Of a DNA stretch of 64,000 bases, positions 3,061 through 51,819 are shown one piece after another; position 1 is the stretch's first letter; every line of letters begins with the position of its first letter. The translations under genes were made by a program, and so were the position numbers. The notes under the pieces were generated by a model that did no database searches, was not told the DNA's origin, and was given only the letters and a program-made list of their open reading frames with translations. The DNA is from Stegostoma tigrinum (taxonomy: Eukaryota), in NCBI RefSeq assembly GCF_030684315.1, contig NC_081386.1, forward strand, positions 12,285,914 to 12,349,913, read 5' to 3'.

Positions 3061-3270
3061 ATCCCTCATCTGATAACTGCTGACAACCAGGACAAGCTGC
3101 TTCTTTGCATCTGTTTTAAACAGGAGGGCAAGATAGGAATATTGCGTGCCTTTAAAATGCAGCTGAGGGAAGGCAAGACATAGATGCAGCGAGCATTCAA
3201 ATAGGCACTAATGAACTGTGTGCTAAGACAGCAAGTGAGCAGCTCTGAAATGCAGCCTGGTCCTGTCTAT

Positions 3271-3467
3271 GATAACAAAGTGTGAAGCTGGATAAACACA
3301 GCAGGCCAAGCAGCATCTCAGGAGCACAAAAGCTGATGTTTCGGGCCTAGACCTAGGCCCGAAAAGTCAGACTTTGTGCTCCTGAGATGTTGCTTGGCCT
3401 GCTGTGTTCATCCAGCTTCACACTTTGTTATCTTGGATTCTCCAGCATCTGCAGTTCCCATTATCTC
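3271..3467. mobile_element. Fold-back Penelope family 1 mini-insertion
   Basis: Inverted arms gataacaaagtgtgaagctgga...ggcctag / ctaggccc...cactttgttatc; ~35-nt tail on the right arm only; direct repeat ctggtcctgt at 3257-3266 and 3467-3476. Confidence 0.9.
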
Positions 3468-3509
3468 TGGTCCTGTGCGTGAGCTGGGCCTTTTTAAAAA
3501 ATGAAGGCC

Positions 3510-3835
3510 TCGTGGTATTATCACTACACTGTTAATCTAGAGACCCAAATAATGCTTTAGGGACCCCAGTTCAAATCCTCCCATGGCTGATAGTAGAATT
3601 TGAATTCAATAAAAATCTGGAATTAAGTGTTCAATGATAACCATTGTCAAAAACAAAACCCACCTTGTTCATTAATGCCTTTTAGGGGAGGAAACTGCTA
3701 TCCTTAACTGATCTGGCCTACAAGTGTCTCCAGATCCACAGAAATGTGGTTGACTCTTAACTGCCGTCTGGGATGGGCGATAAATGCTGGCCCAACCAGC
3801 ACTGCCCTCATCCCATGAATGAGTTTTTAAAAAAG
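3510..3835 (+). mobile_element. tRNA-derived SINE family A
   Basis: gtggtattatcactacactgttaatctagagaccc...catcccatgaatgag. Confidence 0.85.
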
Positions 3836-4139
3836 TACTCAATAGCTCTATTGCAGCATTTCAATCAGAGGCAATCAATCCCATGTGCTGTATTAAAGTG
3901 CAGAAGTGTAGCGGATTTTAGTGAATTGGAAATATATGATGTTGGAGAGGCCGGGTACTTGATGGATACCAATGTCCATGGATATGTGGCGCATGCAGGC
4001 ACTGCAAAGGGAGTGGTCCCCTGAGACATTGATGCTAAATGCCTGAGTCTGAATTACAGAGGAGCAAACGGCGAGTTGGAATGCCAGGACCCTGCTCTAC
4101 CTTGCATATTGATAATTCTTTGCAATTAGCTTCTATCAG

Positions 4140-4612: not shown

Positions 4613-5464
4613 AATGGAGTGCGATTAAGTAATAACGAAGGTGATAATGAGTAAAATTATGTGTCAAAAGGTGTCTCATTGCTCAGTAGCAAGAATCTCA
4701 TCTTGATATCCAGGCCATCGTCTTGCACTTTTACATGCTCGAAACAAGTTATATAAGACATAGGAGTCTGTTTTATGTTGGTAAAAGAAATTTGTACAGA
4801 CATTTCACCTCTTATATGTGAAAAGGGGATCATGGAGACAACCAACCTTGCAGCATCCCATGGCAACATTCACCATCTAATCAAAATCTCCTTTCCTTGT
4901 CTGAGAATTAAGATTGACAGTTAACTGTTCTTGCTGAATTTCCATTCCAATGAGAGCCCAAACAATCAGCACAATTAACTCATATGTATAAAAAATGTGT
5001 ATAAAATGTTGTTGCTATATAAAATGGCATCCCTTTTTCCAAGTCAGTTTCTTGCATCCTAGTTCTGCTCAGTGCATGATAAACAGCTGTGACTTCTTGT
5101 ATCCCTTTGGCAATGTTAAAGCAATAAAGGTAAAGTTGCCATTGTCTTTCAATGCTGAACTGTTTACGACCTTCATATGGCCCAGTAATTGTAGGAATGC
5201 TTACAACCAGTGTTTCCTTGTGTTCTTGATAACTTAAATCTTTGCTCAACTTTGCTGTTCAAACTTTTAAGAGTATTATTGGAAGTTACTTATCTTGAAT
5301 TGGTTTTCATTTACATCTGCTATGTTATTATCTACCTGCTGCCTTGTGTTCATAAGCCACTTGTAAAGAATTTAGAATGTTTTTCTATGTAAGGTTGCTG
5401 AACAAGATTAGGGTTGTTCACTTTCAATGTTTCTACACTTATAAAGCCATTTCTAATGAACGCA

Positions 5465-5625
5465 GAGATATAGGAACTGCCAATGCTGGAGAATCTGAAA
5501 TAATAAGGTGTAGAGCTGGTTGAACATTCAAGAAAAATCAAGGGTTCAGACCGGAAACGTCAGCTTTCCTGCTCTTCTGATGCTGCCTGGCCTGCTGTGT
5601 TCATTCAGCTCTACACCTTCTTATC
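5465..5625. mobile_element. Fold-back Penelope family 1 mini-insertion
   Basis: Tailed left arm gagatataggaactgc..., right arm ends ccttcttatc; TSD tctaatgaacgca (5452-5464) / tctaatgaataca (5626-5638), differing only at a CpG. Confidence 0.85.
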
Positions 5626-6726
5626 TCTAATGAATACAACAGTGCAACACGTGATAAGACAAAGTGAACCTTAGATTACAATGTTGTTAGGATTCCTAAA
5701 GGTACAAAGAGATTTGATTTCCTTTTGAGGGCATGCAATGAGTTGCTCCGAAGAGTGGTACAAAATAAAAGTACTAATTGCCTGGCCTTGCAAAGGTCAA
5801 ACTTTCCTTTATCATTTTGATTCTGGTCCCTAGCTACTTTGGACTATACCGATAAAAGATTCTATGGTGCAGCTGAAAAATCAAGTCCATCTTTATAGGT
5901 TTACAAATGATAGATGCTGGTGCTGACAGGCAATGTCCATTAATACGATGATAAACTTAGCAGAATGCTAATGTGGAACCTTCCTGAAGATGGCTATTGC
6001 ACTTTGCACAGAGAACACCCTGTGTAAATGGATGCGAGCCAGAATATTTTCCAGCAGATAAAATATGGAATGAGTCAGTCATGACCATGGCATCAGACAA
6101 TCAACCATATCAGAGTAAGGTCAGGCTGCCACATTTAACTGTAATACTTTGAGTATCTGCTTTCCTAGCCTTGGCCTAGTTTGCCCTTCAGTTTTGGCAG
6201 TGAGACAAGTTGTATAATGATATGGCTCTATGATTTATAGAAAGGCATGCTTTTCTTCTGATATCTTTATATACTGAGGACTAAGATTCTTTCCCTTACA
6301 TTAAAGAGCCTTTTCCTGCTTTCTGCGCTGAGTCATATTACAAACAGAAAATGCAATTAAAATGAACAAACCAGGGATGCAAGAAATTCTGAACTGGGCT
6401 GAAATTAATTATGACAATTTTTATTCCATGCACCTCCTCAAAAAGATCAATTCATTATAAGGTATAAAACTGGGTGATCCTAATTGGTTTTGATCAATGT
6501 TAATGTGTCTGCATATGTTGCAAAAAGAGAAATAGCTTCATTATGTTGACAATATTCCGACTCACCAAAGTAAAATTTATGGTCACAAATTTCTGCTTGG
6601 TTACACTGAGTGTCTTGATGCGGTTTGTTTAAACCAGTGCAAAAGATGGCAGAATTTGCACAGCACAAATTGAATTTCCCCAGTTCTTTTTGTGCTACTT
6701 TCAGAAACAGTTACTATTAATAGCTG

Positions 6727-6838
6727 ATTTATTAATATCCGTTCCAGAAGAAGGGTCTCCACCCAAAACATCAGCTTTCCTGCTCCTCTGATGCTGCTTG
6801 GCCTGCTGTGTTCATCCAGCTCTATACCGTGTTATCTC
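6727..6838 (+). mobile_element. Penelope family 1 terminal mini-insertion with decayed hammerhead
   Basis: ccagaagaagggtctccacccaaaacatcagc is a decayed CTGATGAAGGG...CCCGAAACGTCAGC; perfect 14-bp TSD actattaatagctg at 6713-6726 and 6839-6852. Confidence 0.88.
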
Positions 6839-6964
6839 ACTATTAATAGCTGGCTTAGTCCACAAAATAAAAAATGACCTCAGCTCAAATTAATTATATT
6901 TGCAGGTTTCTAACAGTACCTGTTTGCAGGCATTTAAGGAGGCTTTTTTTGTTTAAGTGGGGGA

Positions 6965-7068
6965 AGTTCTGTAGAAGGTCACTAGACTCACAATGTTAAC
7001 TCTGTTTTGTCCCCATAGATGCTGCCAGACCAGCTGATTTCCTCTCGCAATTTATGTTTCTGTCTCAG
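6965..7068 (+). mobile_element. Penelope family 2 terminal fragment
   Basis: ttctgtagaaggtcactagactcacaatgttaactctg...agatgctgccagacc matches the right arm of 23928-24162. Confidence 0.7.
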
Positions 7069-7119
7069 TGCTAAGTATTTCTTTTAGTATGGGGGTGGTG
7101 TTCGTCAACAGCACTATTT

Positions 7120-7428
7120 TCATAGAATCCCAACATTGTGGAAGCAGGCTACTCAGCCCACTGATTCCACACCACCCCTCTGAAGAGCATCCCTACTCAC
7201 ATCCACCTAGCTAACACATCATTGAATACTATGAGCAATTTAACATGGCAAATCCACCTAACTTACAAATCTTTGGGCTGTGGGAGGAAAAAACAGCACC
7301 CAAAGGAAACCCACACAAATTCAGAGAGAACATACAAGCTCCACAAACAGAGTTGTCTGAGGCTGGAATTGAACCTGGGTCCAATGGCAGTAAGAGGTAG
7401 TAGAGCTGAGCACTGAGTCACCATGCGG
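7120..7428 (-). mobile_element. HE1-like tRNA SINE
   Basis: Minus strand reads gcatggtgactcagtgctcagctctact...ccaggttcaattccagcctc...gtggagcttg..., ending in a CR1-type tail (gattctatg). Confidence 0.8.
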
Positions 7429-15057: not shown

Positions 15058-15064
15058 GATTTGT

Positions 15065-16040: not shown

Positions 16041-16041
16041 G

Positions 16042-16329: not shown

Positions 16330-16882
16330 ATATGAAAGCAAGAGTAGGTCTATATCATGGCTGATGTTCATCCAAACACCATTTTCCCTCATTATCCCCA
16401 TAATCCATTGGTGTCATTAGTATCAAAAAGCCTATCTATCTCTAGAGTCACACATCATGAAAACAGATCCTTCGGTGCAACCAGTCTATGCCAAACATAA
16501 TTCCAAATTAAACTGGTCCCACCTGCCTGCTCCTGGCCCATATCCCTCCAAACCTTTCCTATTCATGTACTTAGCTAAATGACTTTTAAATATTGTAATT
16601 TTACCCACATCCACCACTTCCTCAGAAAGATCATTCTGCACATGAACCACCCTCTGGGTAAAAAATTGCTCCTCGTCTTTTTTAAATCTTTCTCTTCTCA
16701 TCTTAAAAGCGTGCCCTTTAGTCTTGAAATTCCCCATCTAAGGGTAAAGACAACTACCATAAACTCTATCTCTAACTCTCATAACTTTGGAAAAATGTAT
16801 AACTGATCTTCTCTGACCCTCTAGGGCAGAAAAATTGGGTAAGATCTGATAAAGGTCTTAAATTGCTTGTAGTTTTTCTAAG
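16330..16882 (-). mobile_element. Nested CR1 3' fragments; the older one continues at 19622-19930
   Basis: ORF 16486-16737 (KTKGHAFKMRRERFKKD..FFTQRVV) is a CR1 C-terminus; the older CR1 resumes after the Penelope TSD (gactcctttagttttagactc). Confidence 0.75.
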
Positions 16883-16980
16883 TGACAATGGGAACTGCAG
16901 ATGCTGGAGAATCCAAGATAATAAAATGTGAGGCTGGATGAACACAGCAGGCCCAGCAGCATCTCAGGAGCACAAAAGCT

Positions 16981-17008
16981 GACGTTTCGGGCCTCGACCC
17001 TTCATCAG
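16981..17008 (-). ncRNA. Minimal type I hammerhead ribozyme core
   Basis: Minus strand CTGATGA-A-GGGT-CGAG-GCCC-GAAA-CG-TC; palindromic ACGT in place of stem III, as known for PLE minimal hammerheads. Stem I is only ~2 bp. Confidence 0.75.
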
Positions 17009-17467
17009 AGAGGGGGATGGGGTGAGGGTTCTGGAATAAATAGGGAGAGAGGGGGAGGCGGACCGAAGATGCTGCCAGACCCGCTGAGCTTTAACAGCAA
17101 TTTCTGTTTTTATTCCTGATTTACAACATTTGCAGAACTTTTCAATTTTTATCAAGAGGTCATTATCATTGCTTTTAATGAAAAGTATCTGATAGCAAAA
17201 TAAATGACTCTTGTTTGAATTCAGGTAGAAATGAAAGCTCCATAAACAAATGTTTGAAAAATGTATTATTTAAGAAACTGTAACTTTTTCAATGCAATGG
17301 AGAAATATGACATTCCACAAATATAAAATTTGCTTTTCAGATCCAGTGAGATTACTTACCAGCAATTGCGAAGTCAGTTGACAACTGTTGACAATCCAGC
17401 CACATCTTCTTCAATATAATTAATTGTGAGACTGGATGAACACAGCAGGCTCAGGAGCACAAAAGCT

Positions 17468-17495
17468 GACGTTTCGGGCCTAGACCCTTCATCAG
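17468..17495 (-). ncRNA. Minimal type I hammerhead ribozyme core
   Basis: Minus strand CTGATGA-A-GGGT-CTAG-GCCC-GAAA-CG-TC. Confidence 0.75.
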
Positions 17496-17659
17496 AGAGG
17501 GGGATGGGGTGAGGGTTCTGGAATAAATAGGGAGAGAGGGGGAGGCGGACCGAAGACAGAGAAAAAATAAGATAGGTGGAGAGGAGAGTATAGGTGGGGA
17601 GGTAGGGAGGGGATAGGTCAGTCCAGGGAAGACGGACAGGTCAAGGAGGTGGGATGAGG

Positions 17660-18678
17660 TTAGTAGGTAGGAGATGGAGGTGCGGCTTGGGGTGGTAGGA
17701 AGGGATAGGTGAGAGGAAGAACAGGTAAGGGAAGCAGAGACAGGTTGGACTGGTTTTGGGATGCGGTGGGTGGAGGGGAAGAGCTGGGCTGGTTGTGTGG
17801 TGCAGTGGGGGGAGGGGACAAACTGGGCTGGTTTTGGGATGCGGTGGGGGAAGGGGAGATTTGGAAGCTGGTGAAGTCCACATTGATACCATTGGGCTGC
17901 AGGGTTCCCAAGTGGAATATGAGTTGCTGTTCCTGCAACCTTCGGGTGGCATCATTGTGGTACTGCAGGAGGCCCATGATGGACATGTCATCTAGAGAAT
18001 GGGAGGGGGAGTGGAAATGGATTGCGACTGAGAGGTGCAGTTGTTTATTGCGAACCGAGCGGAGGTGTTCTGCAAAGCGGTTCCCAAGCCTCCGCTTGGT
18101 TTCCCCAATGTAGAGGAAGCCACACCGGGTACAATGGATGCAGTATACCACATTGGCAGATGTGCAGGTGAACCTCTGCTTAATATGGAAAGTCATTTTG
18201 GGGCCTGGGATAGGGGTGAGGGAGGAGGTGTGGGGGCAAGTGTAGCATTTCCTGCGGTTGCAGGGGAAAATGCCGGGTGTGGTGGGGTTGGGGGGCAGTG
18301 TGGAGCGAACAAGGGAGTCACGGAGAGAGTGGTCTCTCCGGAAGGCAGACAAGGGTGGGGATGGAAAAATGTCTTGGGTGGTGGGGTCAGATTGTAGATG
18401 GCAGAAGTGTCAGAGGATGATGCGTTGTATCCGGAGGTTGGTGGGGTGGTGTGTGAGAACGAGGGGGATCCTCTTTGGGCGGTTGTGGCGGGGGCGGGGT
18501 GTGAGGGATGTGTTGCGGGAAATGCGGGAGGCGCAGTCAAGGGTGTTCTCGGCCACCGTGGGGGGAAAGTTGCGGTCCTTGAAGAACTTGGACATCTGGG
18601 ATGTGCGGGAGCAGAATTCCTCATCGTGGGAGCAGATGCAGCGGAGGCGGAGGAATTGGGAATAGGAGATGGAATTTT
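17660..18678 (-). pseudogene. Penelope polyprotein C-terminal part: RT thumb/linker, Zn knuckle and GIY-YIG endonuclease
   Basis: ORFs 18410-18595 and 17660-18352 are in one frame, split by a single TGA; motifs IPLVLTHHP, CNRRKCYTCPH and NVVYCIHCTRCGFLYIGETKRRLGNRFAEH...HF. Confidence 0.9.
17745..17860. repeat. ~39-bp tandem repeat (3 units) in the Penelope 3' region, mirrored at ~19170-19285
   Basis: Encodes TASQNQPSLSPPP / TAPHNQPSSSPPP / TASQNQSN. Confidence 0.8.
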
Positions 18679-18764
18679 AGGGATGTGCTGGAGATGGCCC
18701 AGGTGAACTGAAGGTTGGGGTGGAAAGTGTGGGGTTTGGTGCCTGTGTAGGTGCAGAGGAGGGA

Positions 18765-19143
18765 CTGTTCACTTCACCAACAATTTCACCCCAACCTTCA
18801 GTTCACCTGGGCACTTCCCTCACCTTCCTGGACCTCTCAGTCTCCATCTCAGGCAACCAGCTTGTAACTGATGTCCATTTCAAGCCCACCAACTCCCACA
18901 GCTACCTAGAATACACCTCCTCCCACCCACCCTCCTGCAAAAATTCCATCCCCTATTCCCAATTCCTCCGCCTCCGCCGCATCTGCTCCCACAATGAGGC
19001 ATTCCATTCTCGCACATCCCAGATGTCCAAGTTCTTCAAGGACCGCAGCTTTCCCCCCACAGTGGTTGAGAATGCCCTTGACCGCGTATCCTGCATTTCC
19101 CGCCACACATCCCTCTCACCCCGCCCCTGCCACAACCGCCCAA
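18765..19143 (+). pseudogene. Penelope RT C-terminal fragment in the inverted arm; endonuclease deleted
   Basis: LTFLDLSVSISGNQLVTDVHFKPTNSHSYLEYTSSHPPSCKNSIPYSQFLRLRRICS contains the PLE RT motifs FLD, KPT, SSHP and RLRRICS. Confidence 0.9.
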
Positions 19144-19530
19144 TGTGGACTTCACCAGCTTCAAAATCTACCCTTCCCCCACCGCATCCCAAAACCAGCC
19201 CAGTTTGCCCCCTCCCCCCACTGCACCACACAACCAGCCCAGTTCTTCCCCTCCACCCACTGCATCCCAAAACCAGTCCAACCTATCTCTGTTTCCCTAA
19301 CCTGTTCTTCCTCTCACCCATCCCTTCCTCCCTACCCAATCCGCACCTCCATCTCCTACCTACTAACCTTATCCCACCTCCTTGACCTGTCCGTCTTCCC
19401 TGGACTGACCTATCCCCTCCCTACCTCCCCACCTATACTCTCCTCTCCACCTATCTTCTTTTCTCTCCATCTTCGGTCCGCCTCCCCCTCTCTCCCTATT
19501 TATTCCAGAACCCTCACCCCATCCCCCTCT

Positions 19531-19558
19531 CTGATGAAGGGTCTAGTCCCGAAACGTC
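19531..19558 (+). ncRNA. Minimal type I hammerhead ribozyme core
   Basis: CTGATGA-A-GGG-TCTAGT-CCC-GAAA-CG-TC. Confidence 0.72.
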
Positions 19559-20376
19559 AGCTTTTGCGTTCCTGAGATGCTGCTGGGCCTGCTGTGTTCT
19601 TCCAGCCTCACATTTTATTATCTTGTAGTTTTTCTAAGACTGACTCCTTTAGTTTTAGACTCACCAACTGCCTCCACCGAAAAATAATACCCAACCAGTG
19701 GAAATGACCAATCCATCCCTGTCTGGTCCTTTACGAATTTTGTAAGTTTCAACGACGCCACTTCATTCTTGTAAGTTCCAGAGAATACAAGCCTGGTCTC
19801 CTCAAGCCCCTCCTCATTAGACAGTCCCACCATTGAAGGAATCAGTCTGGTGATTCTTCACCGCAATCCCGCGCACACACAAGCATCCTTCCTTATGTAA
19901 GGGGACCAAAAGCATGCAGAATGCTCCAGAATCTTCACAGAAACAGGGACCTCTCATATGTTATTGACATGTTAATTCTCGCATATAGGTTTAATTGTCA
20001 AACACAGCAATATTAATTATTTCAAAACCAAACATTCAAAACATATCAGTGACCTGAAATTTAGCTTTTCCTCCATATCCATGGGTGCTCCCTGACCTGC
20101 TGAGAATTACCTACATTATGTCAGTGAAGAATATTATGGTTGACAATATCCAAGGGTTAATGTGTGGGACTGTATGGATAACACGTCTCTTAATAATGAT
20201 GTGTATTAGCGCAGGTTTGAGAGACTTGGAGGCAGTTTGATCATGGCTTCAGCAGAGTATGCCATGCTTACGTAAAACTGTTTGTGGTTTCTTAATTTGT
20301 ACTTTAGTATTTTATGAACTTATCAATGGCTCAACAGTCTTTTCAGAGCTGAACTAACCGACTTAAACAGCTAAGA

Positions 20377-20563
20377 GCAATAAAAAACAGAAGTTGCTGG
20401 GAAAGCTCAACAGTTCTGGCAACATCTGTGAAGAAAAATTAGAGTTAACATTTTGGGGCGTTAACTCTGATTTTGCTTCACAGATGCTGCAAGGACTGCT
20501 GAGTTTTTCCAGCAACTTCTGGTTTTTGTACCTGATTTACAGCACCCATAATTCTTTTGGTTT
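20377..20563. mobile_element. Fold-back Penelope family 2 mini-insertion
   Basis: Arms aaacagaagttgctgggaaagctc...agagttaac / gttaactct...cagcaacttctggttttt; tail on the right; perfect 14-bp TSD ttaaacagctaaga at 20363-20376 and 20564-20577. Confidence 0.9.
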
Positions 20564-21242
20564 TTAAACAGCTAAGAATTGTTCTGGAAATTGCTTTATC
20601 ATTGTGGGCACAACAAAGAGATGCTACAATAAAAATCAGCATTGTAACAGATACTTTCAATGTCTTCCACCTGGTCAGCAGTCATGGAGTGGTTACAAGC
20701 ATCCTAATCCTTCTCTCATGTTTAATGTACTGTGATATACGTCTGTTGACTTTTTAGTTGATGCCCCAGAGTCTACAAGTTCAAACAGTAACAACAGCAC
20801 ACTGGAAACTGTTTACTCAGAGTATTTTCACATAACATCTATGTCTCCCTCTTGTCTATAAAGCCTGATAACATTGTGATTGAACTGAACATAATGAGGT
20901 CTTTAAAAATTCACAATAGCATTAGTTCCTAAAAATAAACAATGCAAAACGGTTCCCTCATCAGTTATTAAAATGAATGCGTCAAAAATATCATCCAAAG
21001 AAACCTATTAACACATGCACACTAACTGATGATATGTTTTACTCCATACAAGAATATAGCTATTTCACATACATTACACATCATTGTATATCTTATCCAA
21101 ACACTACGAATGTGTATGTGCTGTGCTCATGTTATAATTTCATATATTAATTCATCACTGTGCCCAACCGTTCGTATTGTCTTGATCATTGATATACATA
21201 GAACTACAGCACAGATCATGCCATTAGAAAAAGTTGTTTTTG

Positions 21243-22984: not shown

Positions 22985-23178
22985 TGAAACTAAAACCAGA
23001 AAGTTCTGGAGAAAATGCAACAGGCCTGATAGCATCTGCAGAGAGAGAACAGTTAATGTTTCAAGTCTGATATGATTCTTCATTTTCAAAATGTTAACTC
23101 TCTTTATGACTCCACAGTTCCCACCAGACTTACCATTTTTATTTCAGATCTTCAGCATCTGCAGTACTTTGCTTTCAG
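22985..23178. mobile_element. Old fold-back Penelope family-2-like mini-insertion
   Basis: gaaactaaaaccagaaagttctggagaaa...gttaatgtttc / aaaatgttaactctc...ttcagatcttcagcatctgcagtactttgcttt; TSD not clear. Confidence 0.6.
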
Positions 23179-23927
23179 AATAGTTGCTTCTATTAATCAC
23201 CTACTTCCAATGAGGTGACCCAGGAATAGGAATGTGTCAGCTGGTCAATCTGAAGGGCTATTCTGCAAAATTCCCCCGACACTCACCTCCAAAGCCGTCT
23301 CTGAGTATTTGCTAAATTCTGCCATTTTTAACTGTCATTTTGTCTATCAAAAGCATTCAACTTCTAAATGTTTCTAACAGGTTATTTTCTCAGCCTTTCT
23401 TGAGAAAAGAAGTAAAAACCTTTGGAAAGGCTGTGATGTATTTCAGTGTAGTATTGTTATGTTGCTGCTCCTTATTGCACTAAGTCATTGTGAAGGCTCC
23501 ATTTCACCATACTTATTTGGATTTGAGCCTTATATTTGTGACAGTAAGCCTTTGTTCTCATTTCCTCTCATCAACTCCAAATTGGTTTGATTTTAAAGTA
23601 GGATTTTGCGTGAATATGATAGTTAGGGAGTTTCAGTTCTCAATGCTGTCACCAATAATATTCCAATATCAATCTTCTGATTGGGTGCCACCTTGAAGAG
23701 AATGGGAGAGCTACAAACAGCCACAATACGCAACAATACAGATACAGAGGAATACTACAGCTTTTCAACTGGGACAATAAGACATAGTGCTGGGACATCT
23801 GTAATAGTATGGGAGGATGTGAACCAACTGATAAGTTAACAGCAGAAACGTTATTATGTCAAAATCTTGATATATTAACATTTTTGGCAATCCTTTCAAT
23901 GTTAATGTATAGGCTGTTTTATAAAGA

Positions 23928-24162
23928 AAAACAAAAAGAACTGCGGATACTGTAAATCAGGAACAAAAACAAAGTTTCTGGAAAAGCTCAACAGGTCAGG
24001 CAGCTTCTGTGGATGACAAAACAAGAGTTAACATTTCGGGTCCGGTGACCCTTCCTCAGAACAATTCTGAGGAAGGGTCACCGGACCCAAAACGTTAACT
24101 GTTTTCTCCTCCACAGATGCTGCCAGACCTGCTGAGCTTTTCCAGCAACTTTGTTTTTGTCC
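23928..24162. mobile_element. Fold-back Penelope family 2 mini-insertion with two opposed hammerhead cores (24030-24059 minus, 24067-24096 plus)
   Basis: Palindrome centred near 24063; each arm reads CTGAGGA-A-GGGT-CACCGG-ACCC-(G/A)AAA-(C/T)GTT; perfect 14-bp TSD ctgttttataaaga at 23914-23927 and 24163-24176. Confidence 0.92.
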
Positions 24163-24299
24163 CTGTTTTATAAAGATCTTTGCTTTCATTTCAGTTTGTT
24201 TAACATTCATTAGTCCGGTAGAAACTATTTGATTCCTGAACAAGTGCTAGCAAAGATTGACTTTTTTTTTGTTTCATTTTGTTAAATAAATCCAACAAT

Positions 24300-27412: not shown

Positions 27413-27649
27413 TATCTCTGTGCTACACACCTTTTTCCCAAACCCGGTCTATGTATGATATGGATGTTGGACTAACGTGGATTGTACAGGGCAACCTGAT
27501 CAAACTGATAGGATGGATGGTTACAGTCTTTATCCCGGGTGGAAGCGTCACATGCACAGGGCCATAGTTTTAAAGGGAGAGGAGCAAGTTTACAGGAGAG
27601 CAATTTTTACTTTTAATCACAGCGGGTGGTAGGTGTCTGAAACATACTG

Positions 27650-28620
27650 CATCCTTGGGCCTCTACTGTTTGTAATTTTTATTAATGACTTGGATGAGGG
27701 GATTGAAGGATGGGTCAGCAAGTTTGCGGACGACACAAAGGTCGGAGGTGTCGTTGACAGTGTAGAGGGCTGTTGTAGGCTGCAGTGGGACATTGACAGG
27801 ATGCAGAGGTGGGCTGAGAGGTGGCAGATGGAGTTCAACCTGGATAAATGCGAGGTGATGCATTTTGGAAGGTCGAATTTGAAAGCTGAGTACAGGATTA
27901 ACGATAGGATTCTTGGCAGTGTGGAGGAACAGAGAGGGATCTTGGTGTGCAGATACATAGATCCCTTAAAATGGCCACCCAAGTGGACAGGGTTGTTAAG
28001 AAAGCATATGGTGTTTTGGCTTTCATTAACAGGGGGATTGAGTTTAAGAGTCGTGAGATCTTGTTGCAGCTCTATAAAACTTTGGTTAGACCGCACTTGG
28101 AATACTGCGTCCAGTTCTGGGCGCCCTATTATAGGAAAGATGTGGATGCTTTGGAGAGGGTTCAGAGGAGGTTTACCAGGATGCTGCCTGGACTGGAGGG
28201 CTTATCTTATGAAGAGAGGTTGACTGAGCTCGGTCTCTTTTCATTGGAGAAAAGGAGGAGGAGAGGGGACCTAATTGAGGTATACAAGATAATGAGAGGC
28301 ATAGATAGAGTTGATAGCCAGAGACTATTTCCCAGGGCAAAAATGGCTAGCACGAGGGGTCATAGTTTTAAGCTGGTTGGTGGAAAGTATAGAGGGGATG
28401 TCAGACGCAGGTTCTTTACGCAGAGTTGTGAGAGCATGGAATGCATTGCCAGCAGCAGTTGTGGAAGCAAGGTCATTGGGGTCATTTAAGAGACTGCTGG
28501 ACAGGTATATGGTCACAGAAATTTGAGGGTGCATACATGAGGATCAATGGTCGGCACAACATTGTGGGCTGAAGGGCCTGTTCTGTGCTGTACTGTTCTA
28601 TGTTCTATGTTCTATGTTCT
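27650..28620 (+). mobile_element. Young 5'-truncated CR1 (HER1-like) LINE
   Basis: LGPLLFVIFINDLD..SKFADDTK (RT catalytic motif), WQMEFN, LYKTLVRPHLEYCVQFW; two frameshifts; tail (gttctat)n at ~28595-28620. Confidence 0.95.
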
Positions 28621-29705: not shown

Positions 29706-29723
29706 GACTGACATCAAGGGAAA

Positions 29724-29853
29724 GAGATAATGGGAAGTGCAGATGCTGGAGAATCCAAGATAACAAAGTGTGTAGCTGGATGAACACCGCAGGCTAAGCA
29801 GCATCTCAGGCTGCTTGGCCTGCTGTGTTCATCCAGCTACACACTTAGTTATC
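29724..29853. mobile_element. Fold-back Penelope family 1 mini-insertion
   Basis: Tail gagataatgggaagtgcagatgctggagaatccaa, then arms gataacaaagtgtgtagctggatgaacac / gtgttcatccagctacacacttagttatc; perfect 16-bp TSD ctgacatcaagggaaa at 29708-29723 and 29854-29869. Confidence 0.92.
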
Positions 29854-30872
29854 CTGACATCAAGGGAAAACTGTCTGGTTCCAAGCTGGAGTCATACCTG
29901 GCACAAAGGAGATGGTTCTGGTTGTCTTGAATCCAATCATCTCAGTCATCATACATTACCACAGGTCTTCAACTGCTTTATCATTGACCTTACCTTCATC
30001 AAAGTGTCAGGAGAATGGTGTTCACTGGTAATTGCAATGTATTCAATATCATTCGCAACCCCTCAAATAACAAAATAGTCCATGATCATATGCAGCAAGA
30101 CTTAGACAATATTTAGACTGAAGCTGTTAAATAACAATTAACATTTGTGCTATAGAAGTGCCAAGCAATGACCATCTTTAATTAAAGAGAATCCAGCCAT
30201 CGTTCCTTGACTTTCAATAGAATTGCCATCGCCAAATTCCTCACCATCAACATCCTGTGTGTCAACATTGAATATCTGAATTAGACCTTCCATATAAATA
30301 TTGTTGTTATAAGGACAGGTCAGAGACTGGACTTAATAGAGTAAGTAAGTCTCCTATTCATTTCCCAAAGCTTGTCCACCTTCTGAATAGTTCAAGGCAA
30401 GTGTGTGACAGAATTAGTGCACACATTAGTGCAGCTCATCAATATTCAAGATGTTTTATACCATCTGCAATAAAACAGCTTACATCCACCATTCTAAACA
30501 TTCAATCCATCCACCATCTGTGCACAATGACTACAGTGTGTGCTACCTACAATTAACATTGCAGCAATTTTCTAAAGTTTTTTTGATAGCTTCTTTCAAA
30601 CATGTGACCTCTAGTGCTTTGAACAAAAAAGACAGTGAACACATGGGAACACAAACACATGAAAGTTTTCTCCAAGTCACTTGTCACCATGAGTTAGAAC
30701 TATGTTGTTGCTTTAGTAGCAAAGTCCAAGATCTTTAACCAGCAACGAACAGCACTATGTGTGTACCTTCCTCACGTAATCTGTAGCAGTTCAAAAAAAC
30801 CAGCTCACCATGGCCTTCTCAAAGTAAGATGGGCAATAAATTTCCCTCAAATTCCACAAATGAAAAAAAAAA
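29854..30872 (+). mobile_element. Second, older L2 3' part
   Basis: Colinear with 28640-29700 (ggagtcatacctggcacaaagg ... gatgggcaataaa). Confidence 0.75.
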
Positions 30873-32014: not shown

Positions 32015-32112
32015 TGTCTGAAACAAAAACAGAAGCTGTTGGAGAAACTCAGCAGGGTGCGCAGCAGCTGCAGAAAGAAGGTTTCAGATCCAGTGACCTT
32101 TCTTCAGAACTG
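32015..32112 (-). mobile_element. Penelope family 2 terminal fragment
   Basis: tctgaaacaaaaacagaagctgttggagaaactcagcagg...cagtgacctttcttcagaac. Confidence 0.7.
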
Positions 32113-34033: not shown

Positions 34034-35400
34034 TAAATCTAATTCCAAATCTATGTCTCAACAGCAAAACTCAACAGCCGAGTAACCATCTGAGTAACCT
34101 TCACTCAATGAATTAATGCTTAAACAGATAACATTTTCACTGTTGCTTCTTGATGATCTGTGATTGTTGAAACAATGGCCACAATGCAAATCTCTTTCTC
34201 TAATAATCTTAATAATCCCAGCCCCAGGCTCAATCAACTATGTGTTTGATACATGGAAAACACTCGCAGCTGTGGGCCAAAGGGAGAAGGGTTCAAAATG
34301 CATTGCACAGACATATCTAGGCTATTGATTTCAATGAGGTACTGAGGGAGTGCTGCTTTACTGTTTTTCAAATTTCCTTTGTTCCCTCTGTCTAGCCAAC
34401 TTGATAAAGGAGAATCCATGATATTTCCTTTTTTAACTCATGCTTGAGAATTGACAGCATCACTGGCAAAGCTGGAACTTGCTCTCTATTCCTAGTTGCC
34501 CTGAGCAATTAAGGGTGCAATGAAAACAGCAAGTATTTTGCTTTTAATCAAGTTAGATGTGTGCCTTCCACTTGAGCTGTTGGTAGAGATTCAAGTCTTG
34601 CTCAGCCACTTTAGAAAAAAATTATTCAAAGAATCAAAAATTCAAATTATTCAAAATTATTAAGAGTCACTGGTGTGGAATTCAAGTCAAATATTAGCAA
34701 GAATGGGTGAGGACAATACTTTTAGTTTTCAGGTTGCACTTTAAAGCAAAGCAACATCTTTTACTGACTTCTTTATTAAAGCTGAAATCTCATTTGCAAA
34801 CTGCTACACTTTGAAGTATTATTCCCATCTTTATGCCAATGATCTGGTAAGATAACGAATACATGCCACGTACTTCCCACGATACTCAATGTAAATTGAT
34901 CTTTCTCGCTTTGAGGGACTATCCACATTGTTTTGATCCTATTTTAAAATTGGAATAACTGATTCCTTCCTCTTGCCAACTTACACCTCTCTAGAAACTA
35001 TTTTTGAATCGCTTGAGCACCATTAAGTTGTCAATAAATGGCCCAAATGGTCATTGATTGATGAGGGGTAGACAAAGATAATTAGCTCTCGTGGACATCA
35101 CAGTCAAGCTGCAGCTAACCCTTGCCCATTATCTACAAGTTTGTTATCAGAATTGGGACAACGAGCTGTTTTTCAAAGTCTAAACAAGAAGGTCAAATAC
35201 AATAGTGAAATCACCAAGCTTTGAATTGCAAAATGAATATCCAATTAAATACCTTCCCGATCTTTGTCATCAGTTGCCCTCTGGATATTCTCACTGAACA
35301 ATCAGGGGAATAAGCTCAAGTAGATTGTCATTAAAGGCATTCCTTAAGAAGGTAGTACATCATGAATACTAGTGCAATCATATCAATTCCCATCAACAGT

Positions 35401-35707
35401 CTCAGGTTTCGGAGTAGCTTTGTAGCTCGGTTTATGGGTGTTGAGATTGTTATGATTGGTTTGCTCGCCGAGCTGATTTTCCAAAAGCATGCAATTAATA
35501 AACACATTGAATTCGACCCCATATACATTCCACTATGAAGGAAGACCGGAAGTGAGGCAATCCATCTCAACAGACCCCAGAGTTTAAAAGCCAGGCAGGA
35601 AAACATACCAATGCTTCATTGAAGGCTGCACTGAGGATGTTACTAAACATGGTAAAGAAATGCCTACAAAACAAGAAACCAGCTCAGCGAGCCAACCAAC
35701 CCCAACA
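35401..35707 (+). mobile_element. Penelope family 3 truncated copy with inverted tailed 5' end and decayed hammerhead (35631-35664)
   Basis: AINKHIEFDPIY PLE C-terminal motif; CTGAGGA-TGTTAC-TAAACATG-GTAAA-GAAA-TGCC; inverted ttggtttgctcgccgagctg / cagctcagcgagccaaccaa; TSD ccatcaacagt / ccatcagcaat. Confidence 0.8.
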
Positions 35708-36591
35708 CCATCAGCAATAACATAAAACTTAATTTTTTTTAAAATTGAATGACCTGATATTACCACAGGTATTTTGGATCTCCACTTCATAGGATCCATG
35801 GCTGAACCCACATAGCTCTGCCTAGCTCCTTGACTGATGTAATCTTACTGATCAGTTCCAAATTGATAAAATGTGGCCAAATTTTCTCCCAGTTACACTA
35901 CTATTGAGAAAAGAGCTGAAATTCAGAAGGAGCAGTTTCCATGGATGGATACCATCATTATGGTGCATTATAGCATTGATTTGTAAAGGTTGGTCATTAT
36001 CTGAACTATAAATGTACTTAAATAGGTTTTAGAGAAAGGAATCAGTTGCATGGATGTCAGTCATGAGTTGTGAGATACCATCTCTCTAGCCATGTTCATG
36101 CTACTATAGTTTATATTGAGTTGCAAAAAGAACTGTGTTCCAAATTGTAAAGTCATGCTGAGCAGGAGATAACAACATATCTATAAAAAAGCATGTTGCT
36201 TCAAACTCTACATTTACCAATAAGTACTCTCTTTGTCTCAGTCATAATGTAAATGGCAAGTTAGCTATATTCACGAACTACGCTTAGCAAGTCCAACAAT
36301 CTTACTCCATTGTAAAAAGAAGAGCTGAAGGAAGGAGTTGGAATTGCACATGAACCTGTTTTCTGCTGGATTCACAAATGTCCCAAATTGCTGGACTGAT
36401 GAATCTCATAGTGTGGACTCTTTGTTAGACAAAATCTGGAAAATATGTTTACTGTGCACTTTGACTGTCCCATTTTCTACCTGATAACAATAAATATTTA
36501 ATTGTCTGTGCGACATTTTGAATTGTCTGAACATGTTGGAAAGTCAAGAAGACAATATCCACAATAACGGGAGGAGCAGGCTAGTAAATCA

Positions 36592-44255: not shown

Positions 44256-44687
44256 AGAAATAACTTCTTTAAATTGCTGCCATTGAGTTATAATGATGTA
44301 TGTTACCTAAAAACTGAGCTTGTTGCCCTATGTACAGGTAAGGCACTCAAAAATAAGCAAAGCCACATTTTTAGTTTGCCGCAGAGAGGCAACAATAAAA
44401 CTATTTTAACTGCCTGAACAATCATAACCTGTAAAAATACTTTCTTATGTTCTTGGGTTAAGGTATAACTGCTCTGTTGAATGTTAAGAACATAGAACAT
44501 GGAACATAAGACAGTACAGCACAGGCCCTTCGGCCCTTGATGTCATGTCAAACGTTTACCCTAAAGGGTCTAAAACGTGGCTATGGTTATTTTTGAGTGC
44601 CTTATCTGTACAAAGGGCAACAAGCTCAGTTTTTAGGTATCAGACATCACTATAATGCAATGGCAGCAATTTAAAGAAGTTATTTCT
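44256..44687. repeat. 118-bp inverted repeat (44256-44374 / 44570-44687) enclosing a CR1 tail (44486-44568, minus)
   Basis: Arms align at about 90% identity by eye (agaaataacttctttaaattgctgccattg...aggcactcaaaaataa). Confidence 0.9.
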
Positions 44688-45963
44688 CCAATTTCCAGGT
44701 ATTGGACATCTCGGTAAAGGATTGGATGGGCTTTGTGGAATTCACAAGGGTTCAATGATAACCCGGACAGATCAAAGACCTTGATATTTCTAAGAGTTGG
44801 GAATACTGTCAGGTAAGTATAAGGAGGTCAGGCTTAGTCTAGGGGGTGATGGAGGGTGGGAGGCATTGGAAGGTAGGAGTCAGGAGTGAGACCTTTGAAC
44901 ATGGGATTGGGAGTGGCATTTATTGGGTAAGTAGTTGTATATTCATACTTATATGGCATTTAGTATTGTTTTTCCAAAGTATACACATCAGGAGCCATTT
45001 TGCGGACCAAATAGCACCCATTGCCATCAATTCCAATTTTATTTCTATTTTTTCCCCAGTCTATATAAATAAGAATTGAGCAAACAGAATGAGGGACAGC
45101 TAATAGTTAATTGGAGAGATTATCATTTAATAGGCACATCCTTATAACCCACTCATGTTAGGCCTTCATTATTTATAAGTTATGGATCTTCAAACTAGTG
45201 AAATTATCTTGTCAAGCAATGCTTTGTAAAAAGCACTTTATTCCCCCTGCCACTACTAATCTTATCTTTCCCACAGAAACTGTGATTTCAACAGAAACAC
45301 ATTAATGTGAGAAATGACAATTTTATGTGGTCAGTTAAAAATTACTTGGGCAACAATTATTCAATTTGCAATCAACTATAACTAGACAGGCAAATAACAT
45401 TATTCTAAGATAATCATTTTCCTAATACTTCCAATTTTCTTTGCCTCAAACCACCTTTTTTGATAATTACAAATATTTATCTTAATTGGACAGTGCTGAG
45501 CAACATCCTTCGAAATTCATATGTTCAACTGAGGAAAAAATTCCCAAACCATACATCCGCACTTGATTTAGACCTGGTTGGTAATCAGTAAATTAAAACA
45601 TGCCTTTGTTTTAATTTACAGATTGCTAAATGGGCCATACATTAACTGAAACACAACTGCAAAACAAATTAAAGTTTGGTTTAGATATTTAAATATAAGC
45701 ATCTTTCTTGTGAACACCTGCAAAAGATTACTATGTGTGTTATCAACTATCACTATGCCAACTTGAAAATACTGATTGGTCAGTGAAAGAAGAGGGGCCA
45801 AAGCCTTTCAGGGTGAAAATGTCTGATTCAAGAGGCCCACTTCAATATGCATGACAAGGATGCTTAAATGGCTGTACTAGTGCCTGTGTACCTTCATTTC
45901 GTGATGTAAGGAACACAGAAGCAAGAGAAGGCCATTCCAATCTTCAAGCTGGTTCAGCCATGT

Positions 45964-46272
45964 ATGGCTAAGTGGTATTATCACTGGACTGTTAATCCAG
46001 AGACCTGGCTAATATTGTAGAGACCTGGGTTCAAATCCCACTACAGCAGATGGTGGAATTTGAATTCAATAAAAATATCTAGCATTAAGAGTCTAATGAT
46101 GACCATGAGTTGATTGTTGGGAAAAATGTCCTCTAGGGAAGGAAACAGCCACCTTACATGGTTTGACCGACAAGTGATGCCAGACCCACAGCAATGTGGT
46201 TGACTCTGAACTGCCCTCTGGGCAATTCGGGGTGGACAATAAATGTTGGCCTCATCCCATTAATGAATAAAG
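45964..46272 (+). mobile_element. tRNA-derived SINE family A
   Basis: gtggtattatcactggactgttaatccagagacc...taatgaataaag. Confidence 0.88.
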
Positions 46273-47562: not shown

Positions 47563-49239
47563 TGATCGCACCATTCACCTTTACCAGACCTTGTAAATGC
47601 AAGAACTTTACCTTTAAAAATTCAGCAAATTGCAGGAATACACTTGTTAACAATCAGGGCAGAAAGAAAGCAGGTACCATACAATCTTAAGAACTGTAAA
47701 GTAATATATTCTGGGGGGGGGGGGGGGGGTGGGGGAGACAGTTAAATAAAGATATTCCTAAACAAACAACTTTCTAAAAAGTTGAGATTTTGAGTAACTC
47801 ATGAGTTAAAGCATTTTGTCGAAGCAGATAGTTTCCTCTCGAGTAGAAAGATGGAAATCATGAAAATGAGAACAGTGTACACCATGGATTACAAAGCTTA
47901 GTGACTCTGAGTGGAAATGGAATTAAATATATAATAAAGCAGTTCATCTCATGGTGTTGCCTGAAACCTTACTGCTGCAGCTTAAAATGACTGAACAAAA
48001 TGGAGACAATATTTGCGATCCACGGCAAAATAAGTTGCTATCACCATAAACTGAAGCAGCTTCAGTCGCAGAGTGTTGAGCAGAGGGAACAGAAGTTGCA
48101 GCAGGAAGCAGCAAACCTAGAGCCGGAGATCCAAAAGTAGGTGAATTAAAGGAAATCATCTGTGCCTAACCTGTTGATTAGGTCAGACAAAGTGTTGTAC
48201 TACATTAGATTCACTATAAGGATTGCAGGATGTGCTAAATCATCAGCGAGCGTAGAAATAGGACAATTAACTATTAACTTCTTGCATTTGTGATGGTTGA
48301 AATGAGTTCAACCTGCAGCATAACGTTCATTTAAAATGGGATTAAAATGCATACAAGTGGTATCTGTTTAATCTGCTATTGAACTTGCAAAATTGTGTCT
48401 CCCATTCTAACTCAGAGGTTGGATTTTTTTCCCACTAAAATGTATGCCAGTTTTTTTTGCCAAGCTGGGGTTTATTATAAGAAATAAAATGCTTGGATTT
48501 GATGCCAGAGTTTAAGCATTTTCTATCATTGTCCAGCTGTGTCAGTTTAAAAAAAGTACCATCTCTTTGAAAGTTATTAATGTCCAACTATAAACTTGGA
48601 ACCCAAATTCCTTTAACATATGTGGCTCCTGTCACCCTTTAATGTACCTTTGGTTTGGAGACAAAAATAACAGCATGAAGTCCCTGCAGGCTCGTAACAC
48701 CCTGACATGTTTTCAAGAAGATACTGATATGATGATAAAACCTAATAAACTCAATATAAAAGCCCTGACCAGCCTCAATGGTGTGTGCCAGTGTAAGCAA
48801 ATCCCTCACCCAAGGCAAACAGAGAGGCCTAAAACCCAAGGACGTTCACTGAGATATTCTTAAGAGAGGAGGTGGGGGGAACTTGAGGCCATAACCTCTG
48901 TACGTCAGCAGGACAGAAAGTGATGAACGTGTTTGTAGGAAAATATTTTTGCTCAGTTTAAATCAGTGAGGAATTGATTATAGAAGCTGTGAACAAATTC
49001 CAACCCAGTTATTGCAAAAGTCCCTCTCAGTTGCCACAAATCATCTCTGCTGATGTTTTGGTGGAAAAAAATTAGAAAAATTTCAATTTCAGGAACTTTA
49101 TTATTTTCATTAATCATTGCAGTGCTGTCACCCCTGTCCTTATGGTTTAGCAGGAGATCTATTATATGGTCCATTTACTCTGAACCATATTACCTCATAT
49201 GTTTTCCTGGCTGACCAAATAAGACTTAAGAGATAAAAC

Positions 49240-50760
49240 AATTTACTGTTCATTATGATCCGTGTCACTGAAATCAATCTATTAACCTCCGTTAACTGGA
49301 TCTGTGGCGATATCATGCACACACGTGCATGCAAGAGAGAAAGACAGAGAGAGAATCTCCAGCATGACCATAAAGTGCAGGAGACATGTAATTTCCCGAG
49401 CAAATACAGCTTCATTTTCTCGCAGTCCCTGTCGTTTCAGCAGCTTCAAACAGCCCCTGACCTGTGAAAAATTCTAACAAATTGGCTCCTGTTGTGGAGG
49501 CAAAGGTGCTCAGAATGAGGCGATGGTCGGCTGGTCCGAGTGTGTGGAAGGGAACGCCGCTTAGGGTCATTGCTAATGGCCCTGGCCTGTGTGACGGGAC
49601 TAGCCTATTCTGCACTGCTTTCTTTGCAAATTGCTTATTTTAATTCAAGCTTACAATTGCATCTGGCTCTGTAGGGCCGCGTGAAGACAGATTCTCCAGC
49701 TTGTATTTGTCCAACGGCCTGGGAGATGGGGAGGAAGTGGAAATCCCTAGAATCCCCAAATAGCAGGAGGTTTCAAAGGTGCAGGGTCAGATACGTTCGG
49801 CATTCTGTCCCAGCCCAATAGCCTCTACCAACAGTGAACTTCCCTATGAATGCAGAGGAGGTGCAGAAGGGGTTAAAGATTGGTGTTCCAGGAGTAATAA
49901 GGAAGGGGGAGTAAAGTGGACAGCAGAGGGGAGGGAAAGGTTGTCTGTCTCTCGCCAGGATTAAAGACATTTCAATGAAAAAAATAAAAGAAAGCAGCTG
50001 GATGAAAGGACCACTACTCCCATATAATGAGACAACGGAGTGGATTGAAAAAAAAAGGCAAAATGGTTTCGAAAAATAAAGATAATTATGCCTTACAACA
50101 ATTACGCCAGCTATGAAGTGAAATTATAATAGCCCTTCAAAACTAATTTCAACGTGATGAAAGCGGCTGTGCAAGACAGCAGAAAATCATAAGGTTTACG
50201 ATGCAGATCTCAGCTACAAAGATAGTGATCAGTTTATTCTCCGTACTTTCACGTTACCAGCAGGGCCCATCAGTTTCAGGATCGACAAGCACCGTGGTGA
50301 AGTTTGCAACGGAGTTAGCAATGACCGAGGAGTATATTGGGCTAAAATGATAAAACAGTCTCACACATAGACACCGAAGCAGGCGAATAATTAGCAATCG
50401 CCTTTGAAGTATTCGTTTCAGTTCCAGTGGAAATCCAGGCAGCTGTCATCTTGCGACCAACACATTTCTTTTTCTACCGAAAATCGACAACATCAGACGC
50501 CGAGAGTTAGTTTCATTCGCAAACGTCCCAGGTTTATATTTTGTCATTCTTCAAATACCAACCCCTCCCCCGCCACCAACCACCACCGAGCCATTACTAA
50601 GACGAAAATTAAACCTGGGCTTGATTAATTGAAACCGAGAATAAAGTTTAAACATTCAATCTTACTACAAGCAATTATGATCAAATGCAGTTGAGCATAG
50701 CACCTATGACAGCACATTATTTAGCACGAGATAAATGAATCACCGGCACTTTTTCGAGTG
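49240..50760. promoter_or_regulatory. TE-free CpG-retaining island, candidate promoter or enhancer
   Basis: More than 25 CpGs in 50030-50760 despite AT-rich composition; no recognisable repeats between ~47750 and 51250. Confidence 0.5.
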
Positions 50761-51255
50761 TAGTGCATATTTATTTATATTATATAAAATACACAATCTC
50801 ATTAGAAAGAGTTTGTGAGATCTTTATTTAAATACCATTTATGTACCTTAGGCTTAAATTGTTGTGACATGCCACCAATAATGAGTTGAACGAATTCTGT
50901 TTGCTAATAAATATTGACTCTAACAATGGGCTAATACTTAATTTTATCTGTCTACCTTTTCCCATTCTGTCTGCAATATCTATCCGTCTCCTCAGTGTAG
51001 ATCTTAACTTTGTTTGACAGTGAATCAGCAGCTCCTTGTATCACCCTCAATTTTTATTTTCGCAGGCCTGCTAATTTGCTGCCACTTTTATTTAACACAG
51101 AAGGTCAACAGACTCATCCCTGCTTCAAATAGTTAGTTAGATGTGTTTCTCGGTCTTAGAACCCAGTGTGATCTGGTAAGTCATCTTGCCTCATGCATGT
51201 GTTAACCGTACTAGTAGACACTGACAGCTATTTAACAACAGGAAGCATCACAATC

Positions 51256-51410
51256 AAGAAGCAAAATATTGCAAGAGTTTGTAATCTGTATGAAAAAAAA
51301 TACTGCTAGAGATCACAGCAAGTCAGGCAGCATCTGTGGAGATAAAACTACCCTGTTTTCACTCCATGAATGTTACCTAACCTGCTGTGATCTCCGGCAT
51401 TTTTATTTTC
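51256..51410. mobile_element. Old fold-back Penelope-derived mini-insertion
   Basis: tagagatcacagcaagtcaggcagcatctgtggag / ctccatgaatgttacctaacctgctgtgatctcc; flanks agcatcacaatc / agcattcaatc resemble a TSD. Confidence 0.65.
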
Positions 51411-51819
51411 AGCATTCAATCTGCCTTTTTAAATTTAAAAAAAAGGCATCCCCTTACAGCTAGGCCAACTTGTTCTTTCTCACCCCAGGATCATAAGCAT
51501 TAATGGCAAAATTTATCCAGTGGCTTTGCTTTGCCACAATTTTGCACAACACATGGTTTTGTTTTGTCCGAGGCAGAAAATACCAGTTGTTAGAATAGTA
51601 AAAGGTCATGAATTGCTTACAATGGCATCAATGAAATGGCACATTGAGTATCAGATTTTCTTTTTTTTAAGGTCAGGACAATTTAGTCAGTTTAGTTTGA
51701 TCCCGTTATCACAATCATTACCAATACATTTTGGGTCCAATCACTTTTATAAATATGGAGGGGAGCGGGGTGGGGCAGGTGAATTCTTATGATTTCATTT
51801 TTCCCTATTGCAAGACTTC

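Follow-up and report, generated by a model that had tools for sequence, protein, structure and literature searches.

A 64,000-nt stretch of the genome of the shark Stegostoma tigrinum (assembly GCF_030684315.1, contig NC_081386.1, positions 12,285,914 to 12,349,913; hereafter the window) is dotted with short non-coding insertions, many of them fold-backs in which two inverted arms meet head to head, and the arms resemble the hammerhead-bearing termini of Penelope-like elements (PLEs). The question raised by this locus is what such insertions are and how they are made. They are real and abundant, and of a kind already known; very likely they are independent by-products of ordinary PLEs that carry an endonuclease (EN). 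Taken as a whole, they are probably best explained as PLE ends inserted independently of one another by two-ended priming, the two copies being joined head to head, and their value lies in the footprint they provide of a poorly understood PLE insertion mechanism.

All nine insertions placed in the window by a first-pass annotation, at 3271, 5465, 6727, 20377, 22985, 23928, 29724, 35401 and 51256 (the numbers by which they are called here), are present. They were located by self-comparison and inverted-repeat search, with 22985 added by profile search. A 2.7-kb insertion with identical termini and a 17-bp target-site duplication (TSD) had been overlooked. These insertions are listed below, with the strand where one applies; the tail is about 30 nt long, and arm ends are given on a scale with the hammerhead C3 at 0 and negative values upstream.

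3257..3476, family A fold-back with an exact 10-bp TSD (3257-3266 and 3467-3476); the antisense tail-less arm covers about 3271-3351, the sense arm runs to 3435 and is followed by the tail (3436-3466), and the turn point lies inside hammerhead stem II, with 1-nt microhomology.
5449..5634, old family A insertion with unequal arms: a short tail-bearing arm on the left, a 13-nt filler and a longer tail-less arm on the right; TSD of 9 bp exact, or 12 bp with one mismatch.
6713..6852, plus strand, single tail-less family A arm ending near the ribozyme start; 14-bp TSD (6713-6726 and 6839-6852).
16866..19638, long family A insertion of 2.7 kb with shared termini, one tail and the 17-bp TSD.
20363..20577, family B fold-back whose right arm bears the tail, flanked by a TSD of 14 bp (20363-20376 and 20564-20577).
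22985..23178, decayed family B fold-back with a right-arm tail and an internal deletion; a TSD was sought and none is readable, and the predicted hairpin is not significant.
23914..24176, family B fold-back with a left-arm tail and a 14-bp TSD (copies starting at 23914 and 24163); both arms stop just upstream of the ribozyme core, and the left arm retains an intact minimal hammerhead (C3 at 24059, minus strand).
29708..29869, family A fold-back without a ribozyme, tail on the left; 16-bp TSD (copies starting at 29708 and 29854), arms ending at +40 and +48.
35390..35716, plus strand, family C, a distinct PLE: a 5'-truncated tail-less sense copy containing the end of the open reading frame (ORF), the 3' untranslated region (UTR) and a decayed ribozyme, with a short inverted arm and AC-rich tail at 35401-35480; 9-bp TSD with one mismatch (35390 and 35708).
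51250..51412, old family B-like fold-back with a left-arm tail and arms about 72-75% complementary; the TSD search gave only an AT-rich 9-mer with one mismatch, which is not convincing.

The insertions were compared with a sample of 172 stretches of 10 kb (1.72 Mb), of which 168 were taken at fixed offsets on large contigs and four beside the window. The sample contains 368 family A termini, 65 short and 19 long family A fold-backs (one long pair being false), and 36 short family B fold-backs. The 101 short fold-backs correspond to 59 per Mb, or one per ~17 kb, and would extrapolate to ~190,000 in 3.2 Gb provided that the sample is representative; the 3.2-Gb assembly contains 98,968 occurrences of one 29-mer from the family A terminus. 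The density of the window, first put at about one element per 7 kb, is about twice the sampled average.

The PLE families are not the "at least three unrelated" ones originally proposed. Families A (3271, 5465, 6727 and 29724) and B (20377, 22985, 23928 and 51256) are homologous and align end to end, from ribozyme to tail (65% over 132 nt, E 6e-10), leaving only 35401 distinct. Their origin by PLE retrotransposition is upheld by the linkage of their 3' ends to ORFs for reverse transcriptase (RT) and GIY-YIG, by the variable TSD and by one empty-looking orthologous site. The 2.7-kb insertion holds C-terminal RT and GIY-YIG remnants (frame 17660-18409, minus strand) behind a CxxxxCxxC motif, its GIY-YIG match (E 2e-4, 21.9 bits) lying just below the 22.6 cut-off, together with two intact minimal hammerheads at 17008 and 17495 (both minus strand). 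Long family A copies in the sample contain a 665-aa frame with an RVT_1 match of E 4e-5, under the cut-off, ending in identical EN motifs, and CxxxxCxxC precedes GIY-YIG in window and sampled frames of this family alike. A zinc-finger-like motif between RT and EN, as seen in family A, is a criterion of the Neptune clade, shared with Nematis (PMC8557442). At nine loci a family B arm follows a PLE ORF match of the same orientation by no more than 900 nt; one further PLE ORF hit belongs to family A, and a family C arm lies downstream of such a match at one locus. Family C (35401) has an ATG directly after the core, an AC-rich tail and a partial ORF only. The features of EN-bearing PLEs that were examined are present, namely RT followed by GIY-YIG, a minimal hammerhead, an inverted 5'-truncated copy, a single tail and a variable TSD.

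A side observation concerns the 2.7-kb insertion, in which a 347-nt piece (17068-17415) has been captured as an inverted copy, 98.3% identical to L001:3819-4165. The source locus lies ~33 kb upstream on the same contig and starts inside an old family B fold-back. There is 3-nt microhomology at each joint, and the capture resembles a switch of template, made while the element was inserting, to nearby DNA or a nearby transcript.

A descriptor built on the motif of PMC4209133 finds 106 minimal hammerheads in the 1.72 Mb and none in shuffled sequence, while an Rfam scan of the window gave no hammerhead match. Cores are mostly cut, with 52 of 130 sampled arms spanning the core. The description of the nine insertions as built only from hammerhead termini is not confirmed, as only the left arm of 23928 passes the descriptor; 3271 turns within stem II, 29724 ends short of the ribozyme, and 35401 includes ORF end and 3' UTR.

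Readable TSDs of 10-16 bp had been ascribed to most of the insertions, and in five of nine they are exact; those of 5465 and 35401 are shorter or mismatched, and 22985 and 51256 have none that convinces. Chance does not account for the TSDs: in the sample, one of at least 10 bp flanks 57 of 64 short family A fold-backs, against 7 of 291 swapped pairs, with lengths of 9-19 bp, mostly 13-16, and a slightly AT-rich composition (63% versus 58%). Elements that are short, non-coding, inverted, TSD-flanked and abundant could be miniature inverted-repeat transposable elements (MITEs), derived from a DNA transposon with terminal inverted repeats that resemble PLE ends by chance. The first-pass annotation had itself named such repeats, with a fixed short TSD, as what would speak against a PLE origin; the TSDs found are instead variable, the ends are asymmetric by the 30-nt tail, and arms of long copies run on into RT and GIY-YIG ORFs in a size series from 0.1 to 3 kb. 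MITE identity was rejected on the variable TSD and the continuity with PLEs, no search of a DNA-transposon library being involved, and its probability is close to nil.

An orthologous site bears on the same point. In a contig of another organism (organism C), the segments matching 5602-6691 and 6839-6999 are separated by 22 letters, against 147 in the window, and the 125 missing letters match the 112-nt 6727 element plus one copy of its 14-bp TSD. By this alignment the 6727 site in organism C looks empty. Contigs of organism C carry both ends of the older 5465 insertion. For 3271, the alignment of a contig of organism C breaks off at 3272 and leaves 47 letters of the contig unaligned; this is consistent with an empty site and is no demonstration of one. 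An empty site for 29724 was sought and is bridged by none among the contigs listed.

The junctions bear on whether the fold-backs multiply as such. The hairpin turn point differs between copies, as first described: among one-tailed short fold-backs, 69 of 74 junction coordinates are distinct. Recurrence is also seen, the exact 3271 junction being found at 17 loci and a junction centred on the self-complementary stem II at 203, and that of 29724 is repeated at one sampled locus (L206) with the tail on the opposite side. Such recurrence, and the very large size of the class, would follow if hairpins or promoter-bearing short copies were transcribed and re-inserted as units, and non-autonomous PLE derivatives do exist, among them retrozymes (10.64898/2026.07.22.740005) and Chlamys MRC1 (PMC8557442). 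However, same-junction loci vary in tail side and haplotype. At the 3271-type loci, 15 of 17 of which were parsed (L031 and L033 are complex and were left out), the longer arm bears the tail in 8 and the shorter arm in 7, eight haplotypes are represented, and both arms of the locus match in 11 of 15; the 15 stem-II loci examined are equally mixed. Arm differences almost never recur within same-junction sets (one pattern among 26 differences, and two among 24), haplotypes are common to short and long copies, and a variant specific to short as opposed to long copies was sought without success (best p 0.011 of 9 tests). Mixed tail sides and haplotypes, with no short-copy variant, mark the shared junctions as hot spots; they reflect recurrence and not amplification. 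The proposed rule that a junction shared across loci denotes an amplifying family thus misleads here, and with junctions distinct, tail side and haplotype mixed and no short-copy variant, an amplifying non-autonomous hairpin retroposon class is not supported and is very improbable. Rare secondary amplification is compatible with the 32 same-junction loci compared (3271-type and stem-II type), and promoter-bearing truncated copies could feed in trans the run-off products considered below.

A marked regularity of the fold-backs is their tail. Among the family A fold-backs that could be assessed, exactly one arm bears it in 61 of 64 short pairs and 18 of 18 long ones, with no double-tailed pair, and in 19 of 19 further picked pairs, whereas a free choice of start site would leave about a quarter double-tailed; family B is one-tailed in 30 of 36. 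Single arms carry the same signature. A TSD flanks 52 of the 142 short ones tested, and a filler of at least 8 nt is present in 17 of the 52; 12 of the 17 fillers are classifiable, and all 12 begin at the start site left unused by the main arm. Six of them, 9-34 nt long, are tail-start stubs that lie opposite tail-less arms and find no template there.

These stubs bear on the possibility that the first cDNA snaps back, or that an antisense template primes itself, copying its own arm, as put forward for Adineta PLEs (PMC3846280). Arms of often near-equal length (Spearman 0.47; 0.71 in young copies), small loops and the stem II hot spot at 203 loci are what such copying would leave. Lying opposite arms that hold no tail to copy, however, the six stubs cannot have been copied from those arms, which argues against snap-back and self-priming alike and calls for two separate primings. 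Nor does copying of one arm from the other accord with a tail-less arm that is the longer in 37 of 74 fold-backs (the tail-bearing arm is longer in 29, and 8 are equal), or with 20 of 47 filler-free junctions that lack microhomology. For family A this route is largely refuted, and overall it is very improbable, so that the "independent abortive fold-back" integrations first proposed survive as independent events but not in the snap-back sense. Two separate primings at two sites are likely.

Partner arms are also related in sequence. Rare variants are common to both in 20 of 268 cases against 4.6 expected, and young partner arms differ by 1.4%, compared with 7.5% from the median other arm.

Two-ended priming would proceed as follows. 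Reverse transcription of one RNA would be primed by both 3' ends of a staggered target cut, the first starting at the end of the tail and the second at the inner terminus ~30 nt upstream, and the two cDNAs would then be joined head to head. In the short class the enzyme would use start sites near the 5' end of a transcript promoted by the pseudo-long terminal repeat (pLTR), so that both cDNAs would reach the RNA start after about 100-130 nt and run off there, giving a product that resembles strong-stop. The 3' ends of the cDNAs would be trimmed and joined by 0-5 nt of microhomology or a short filler, often in the self-complementary stem II, whereas long fold-backs would derive from the 3' copy of the same start sites. 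Without the upstream TATA-like box, the products are probably dead ends.

The positions at which arms end are consistent with such run-off. In 53 of 78 short fold-backs the longer arm ends between -8 and +6, and in 4 beyond -8; 34 of 52 TSD-bounded single arms end within the same interval, and arms stop sharply 3-8 nt upstream of the ribozyme core. A TATA box lies about 30 nt upstream of an RNA start, which itself may show an initiator pattern. A TATTTAT box is found at -34/-35 in 57 of 66 long family A copies; of nine long family B copies, three have a TATA-like box between -29 and -35, and short family B arms stop at -4, the A of an initiator-like CCATCAGTT in long B copies. Judged by these motifs, the sharp edge is likely to be the RNA start. 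The coupling test, run on 83 of 84 fold-backs after the "long" pair at L105 proved a false pairing and was dropped, found one pairing of an edge arm with a long arm where 15 were expected (0 of 20000 permutations). A single RNA on which both cDNAs run off at the start is somewhat favoured.

The two ends might instead prime on two RNAs of the same source locus held in a dimer, one start site per subunit, with the edge produced by an RT stop or a processed RNA end. This would account equally for the one-tail rule and the stubs; a dimer is predicted for PAc, the Poseidon element of Anolis carolinensis (PMC11167929), the match in length between long arms is loose, and no cap signal was found. Two RNAs, however, should allow an edge arm to be paired with a long one, of which 1 case was seen against 15 expected, and a stop caused by structure should fall at the ribozyme's 3' foot and not past its 5' side. 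Priming on two RNAs is an unlikely source of the pattern.

In pairs of a long and a short arm (L039, L137 and L079 among the 83 fold-backs, with L210 and L217 among the C1 pairs), the tail-bearing arm is the long one, and the short partner ends at +28 to +65, never at the putative RNA-start edge. Fold-backs of 0.4-0.9 kb with near-equal arms ending internally also occur (L185, L184, L039:8434-9285, L072:3571-3951 and L112:7489-8117); ending at places without a known fixed RNA end, such arms could reflect broken RNA or coupled termination.

A second edge is seen in the TSD-bounded single arms, 2 of which end at +7 to +27 and 15 at +28 to +48 (p 0.002; 0 versus 8 with direct junctions only), in bins that were chosen post hoc, after the data had been viewed. 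The predicted ribozyme cleavage site falls between +27 and +28, and an RT pause at the ribozyme foot would look alike. In its fullest form, the preferred two-ended reading makes the priming obligate, with one RNA and one start site per end, takes the ~190,000 fold-backs for strong-stop stumps and attributes the second edge to germline hammerhead cutting. This extended version is tentative, its chances being somewhat below even. If true, a single mechanism would account for the tail, for the inversion of the pLTR and for the length of the TSD, and the stumps would map the RNA 5' end to the first bases of the hammerhead.

Several observations weigh against two-ended priming with run-off, or narrow its base. 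The one-tail rule has exceptions, namely three tail-less pairs in family A, and three tail-less and two double-tailed pairs in family B, and a lead of tail-less reverse transcription, tested on the 37 versus 29 longer arms, is not significant (p 0.39). Partner arms agree at subfamily columns little more than age-matched controls (0.897 versus 0.877; 0.946 versus 0.896 when young), and gene conversion at a later time, or the use of two RNAs with a common source, could account for their shared variants. The promoter signals are uneven: a TATA-like match is absent in 5 of 9 long family B copies, with only a TA repeat in one; TATTTAT is no more conserved than its neighbours in mostly young copies and overlaps a splice-acceptor-like stretch; and the Penelope of D. 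virilis has an internal promoter without a TATA box (PMC2377424). A cap-derived extra G was sought at arm ends and is not significant (16 of 52 versus 13.5 expected; 13 of 44 versus 11.9). The sample was drawn from large contigs at fixed offsets, arms and junctions were mapped precisely in family A only, and all support comes from fossil insertions. An apparent excess of such a G at -7 to -4 was discarded; it came from a post hoc split and faded with better references.

The insertions had also been put forward as a major source of double-stranded RNA (dsRNA) hairpins. Folding prediction gives strong hairpins in five of the nine, with z between -7.8 and -29 and short helices, the longest unbroken ones measuring 12-36 bp; 5465 folds weakly (z -3.4), and 6727, 22985 and 35401 do not fold at all. 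Given that young arms differ by ~1.4%, near-perfect stems, mostly of 50-100 bp, would form if they were transcribed, and a role as a dsRNA source is possible. In a screen of 140 fold-backs for A-to-G editing scars confined to one strand, none passed. The family B hairpin at 20406-20503 scores 42 bits against the Rfam model MIR1888, whose cut-off is 72 bits. Annotators should be warned that these palindromes resemble MITEs or microRNA hairpins, and that shared junctions are no proof of a family.

Profile search added three family B single arms that are absent from the first-pass annotation.

1389..1521, minus strand, family B single arm with tail.
6983-7069, plus strand, family B single arm.
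32017-32079, minus strand, family B single arm.

Elsewhere in the window, 44256-44687 is an inverted duplication that is not PLE-derived, its 116-nt arms (91%) lacking any other match in the sampled DNA; its 200-nt spacer contains a repeat end of CR1-like appearance. Two remnants of long interspersed elements with RT matches, 78% alike, lie at 27633-28489 and 53838-55154, and copies of a tRNA-headed short interspersed element are numerous (e.g. 3512-3822 and 45961-46250). The non-repetitive segments 5908-6283 and 6440-6577 are ~94% and 85% identical in a more distant organism (D), and are possibly a conserved non-coding element or exon; a Pfam search for host exons in 97 window ORFs of at least 75 aa found none.

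The layout of inverted copy, one-sided tail and TSD is already published: EN-bearing PLEs are described with an inverted pLTR copy, an optional tail of 30-40 bp and a TSD (PMC3846280, PMC8557442, PMC8969392), and mechanistic work on PLEs has been called for (PMC8557442). A search by title and start of abstract, which did not extend to subscription papers, entries of Repbase and Dfam or bioRxiv supplements, found no publication that deals with short fold-backs of PLEs in cartilaginous fish, with PLE twin priming or with a rule of one site per end for PLEs.

In L1 twin priming, the two cDNAs copy different parts of the RNA; here they would copy the same part, from sites 30 nt apart, and the result is a palindrome. 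In L1 too, both target ends prime cDNA and a TSD-flanked inversion results (PMC2837659). Metazoan PLE hammerheads share the minimal type I motif found here, and in Schistosoma dual motifs on opposite strands, 100-700 bp apart, have been attributed to truncated PLEs (PMC4209133). Most copies in the shark, in contrast, cut or lose the ribozyme, and statistics on TSD, tail and junction are absent from the available text of that report. Non-LTR retrozymes are likewise non-coding, hammerhead-bearing and pLTR-derived, but they are head-to-tail tandems with at least two intact ribozymes, whereas the elements described here are head-to-head products of single events whose ribozyme is mostly not intact (10.64898/2026.07.22.740005). 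Membership of that group was rejected on the head-to-head arms and the mostly cut cores.

The Pen2a_Av element of Adineta shows the same head-to-head inverted 5'-truncated copy, tail at one end, TSD and palindromic junction (PMC3846280). The shark arms differ in being mostly shorter than 130 nt and free of ORFs, in carrying the tail on exactly one arm as a near-rule, and in a TSD of 13-16 bp, against 8-10 there; the present data also oppose the self-priming proposed in that paper. A biochemical parallel is PAc, for which both strands are cut and extended, and two RT start sites bound the tail (PMC11167929), which fits the two primings proposed here. The ribozyme lies just upstream, and PAc resembles family C (35401) in the ATG that directly follows the core and in its AC-rich tail. 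In the available text of that study, start sites are not paired with target ends and inverted copies are unexplained; the study found no RNA reads ending at the cleavage site in Anolis, whereas the genomic ends analysed here show a second edge there (PMC11167929). The stumps give sharp predictions for the PAc in vitro system: one site per end, one RNA, and run-off.

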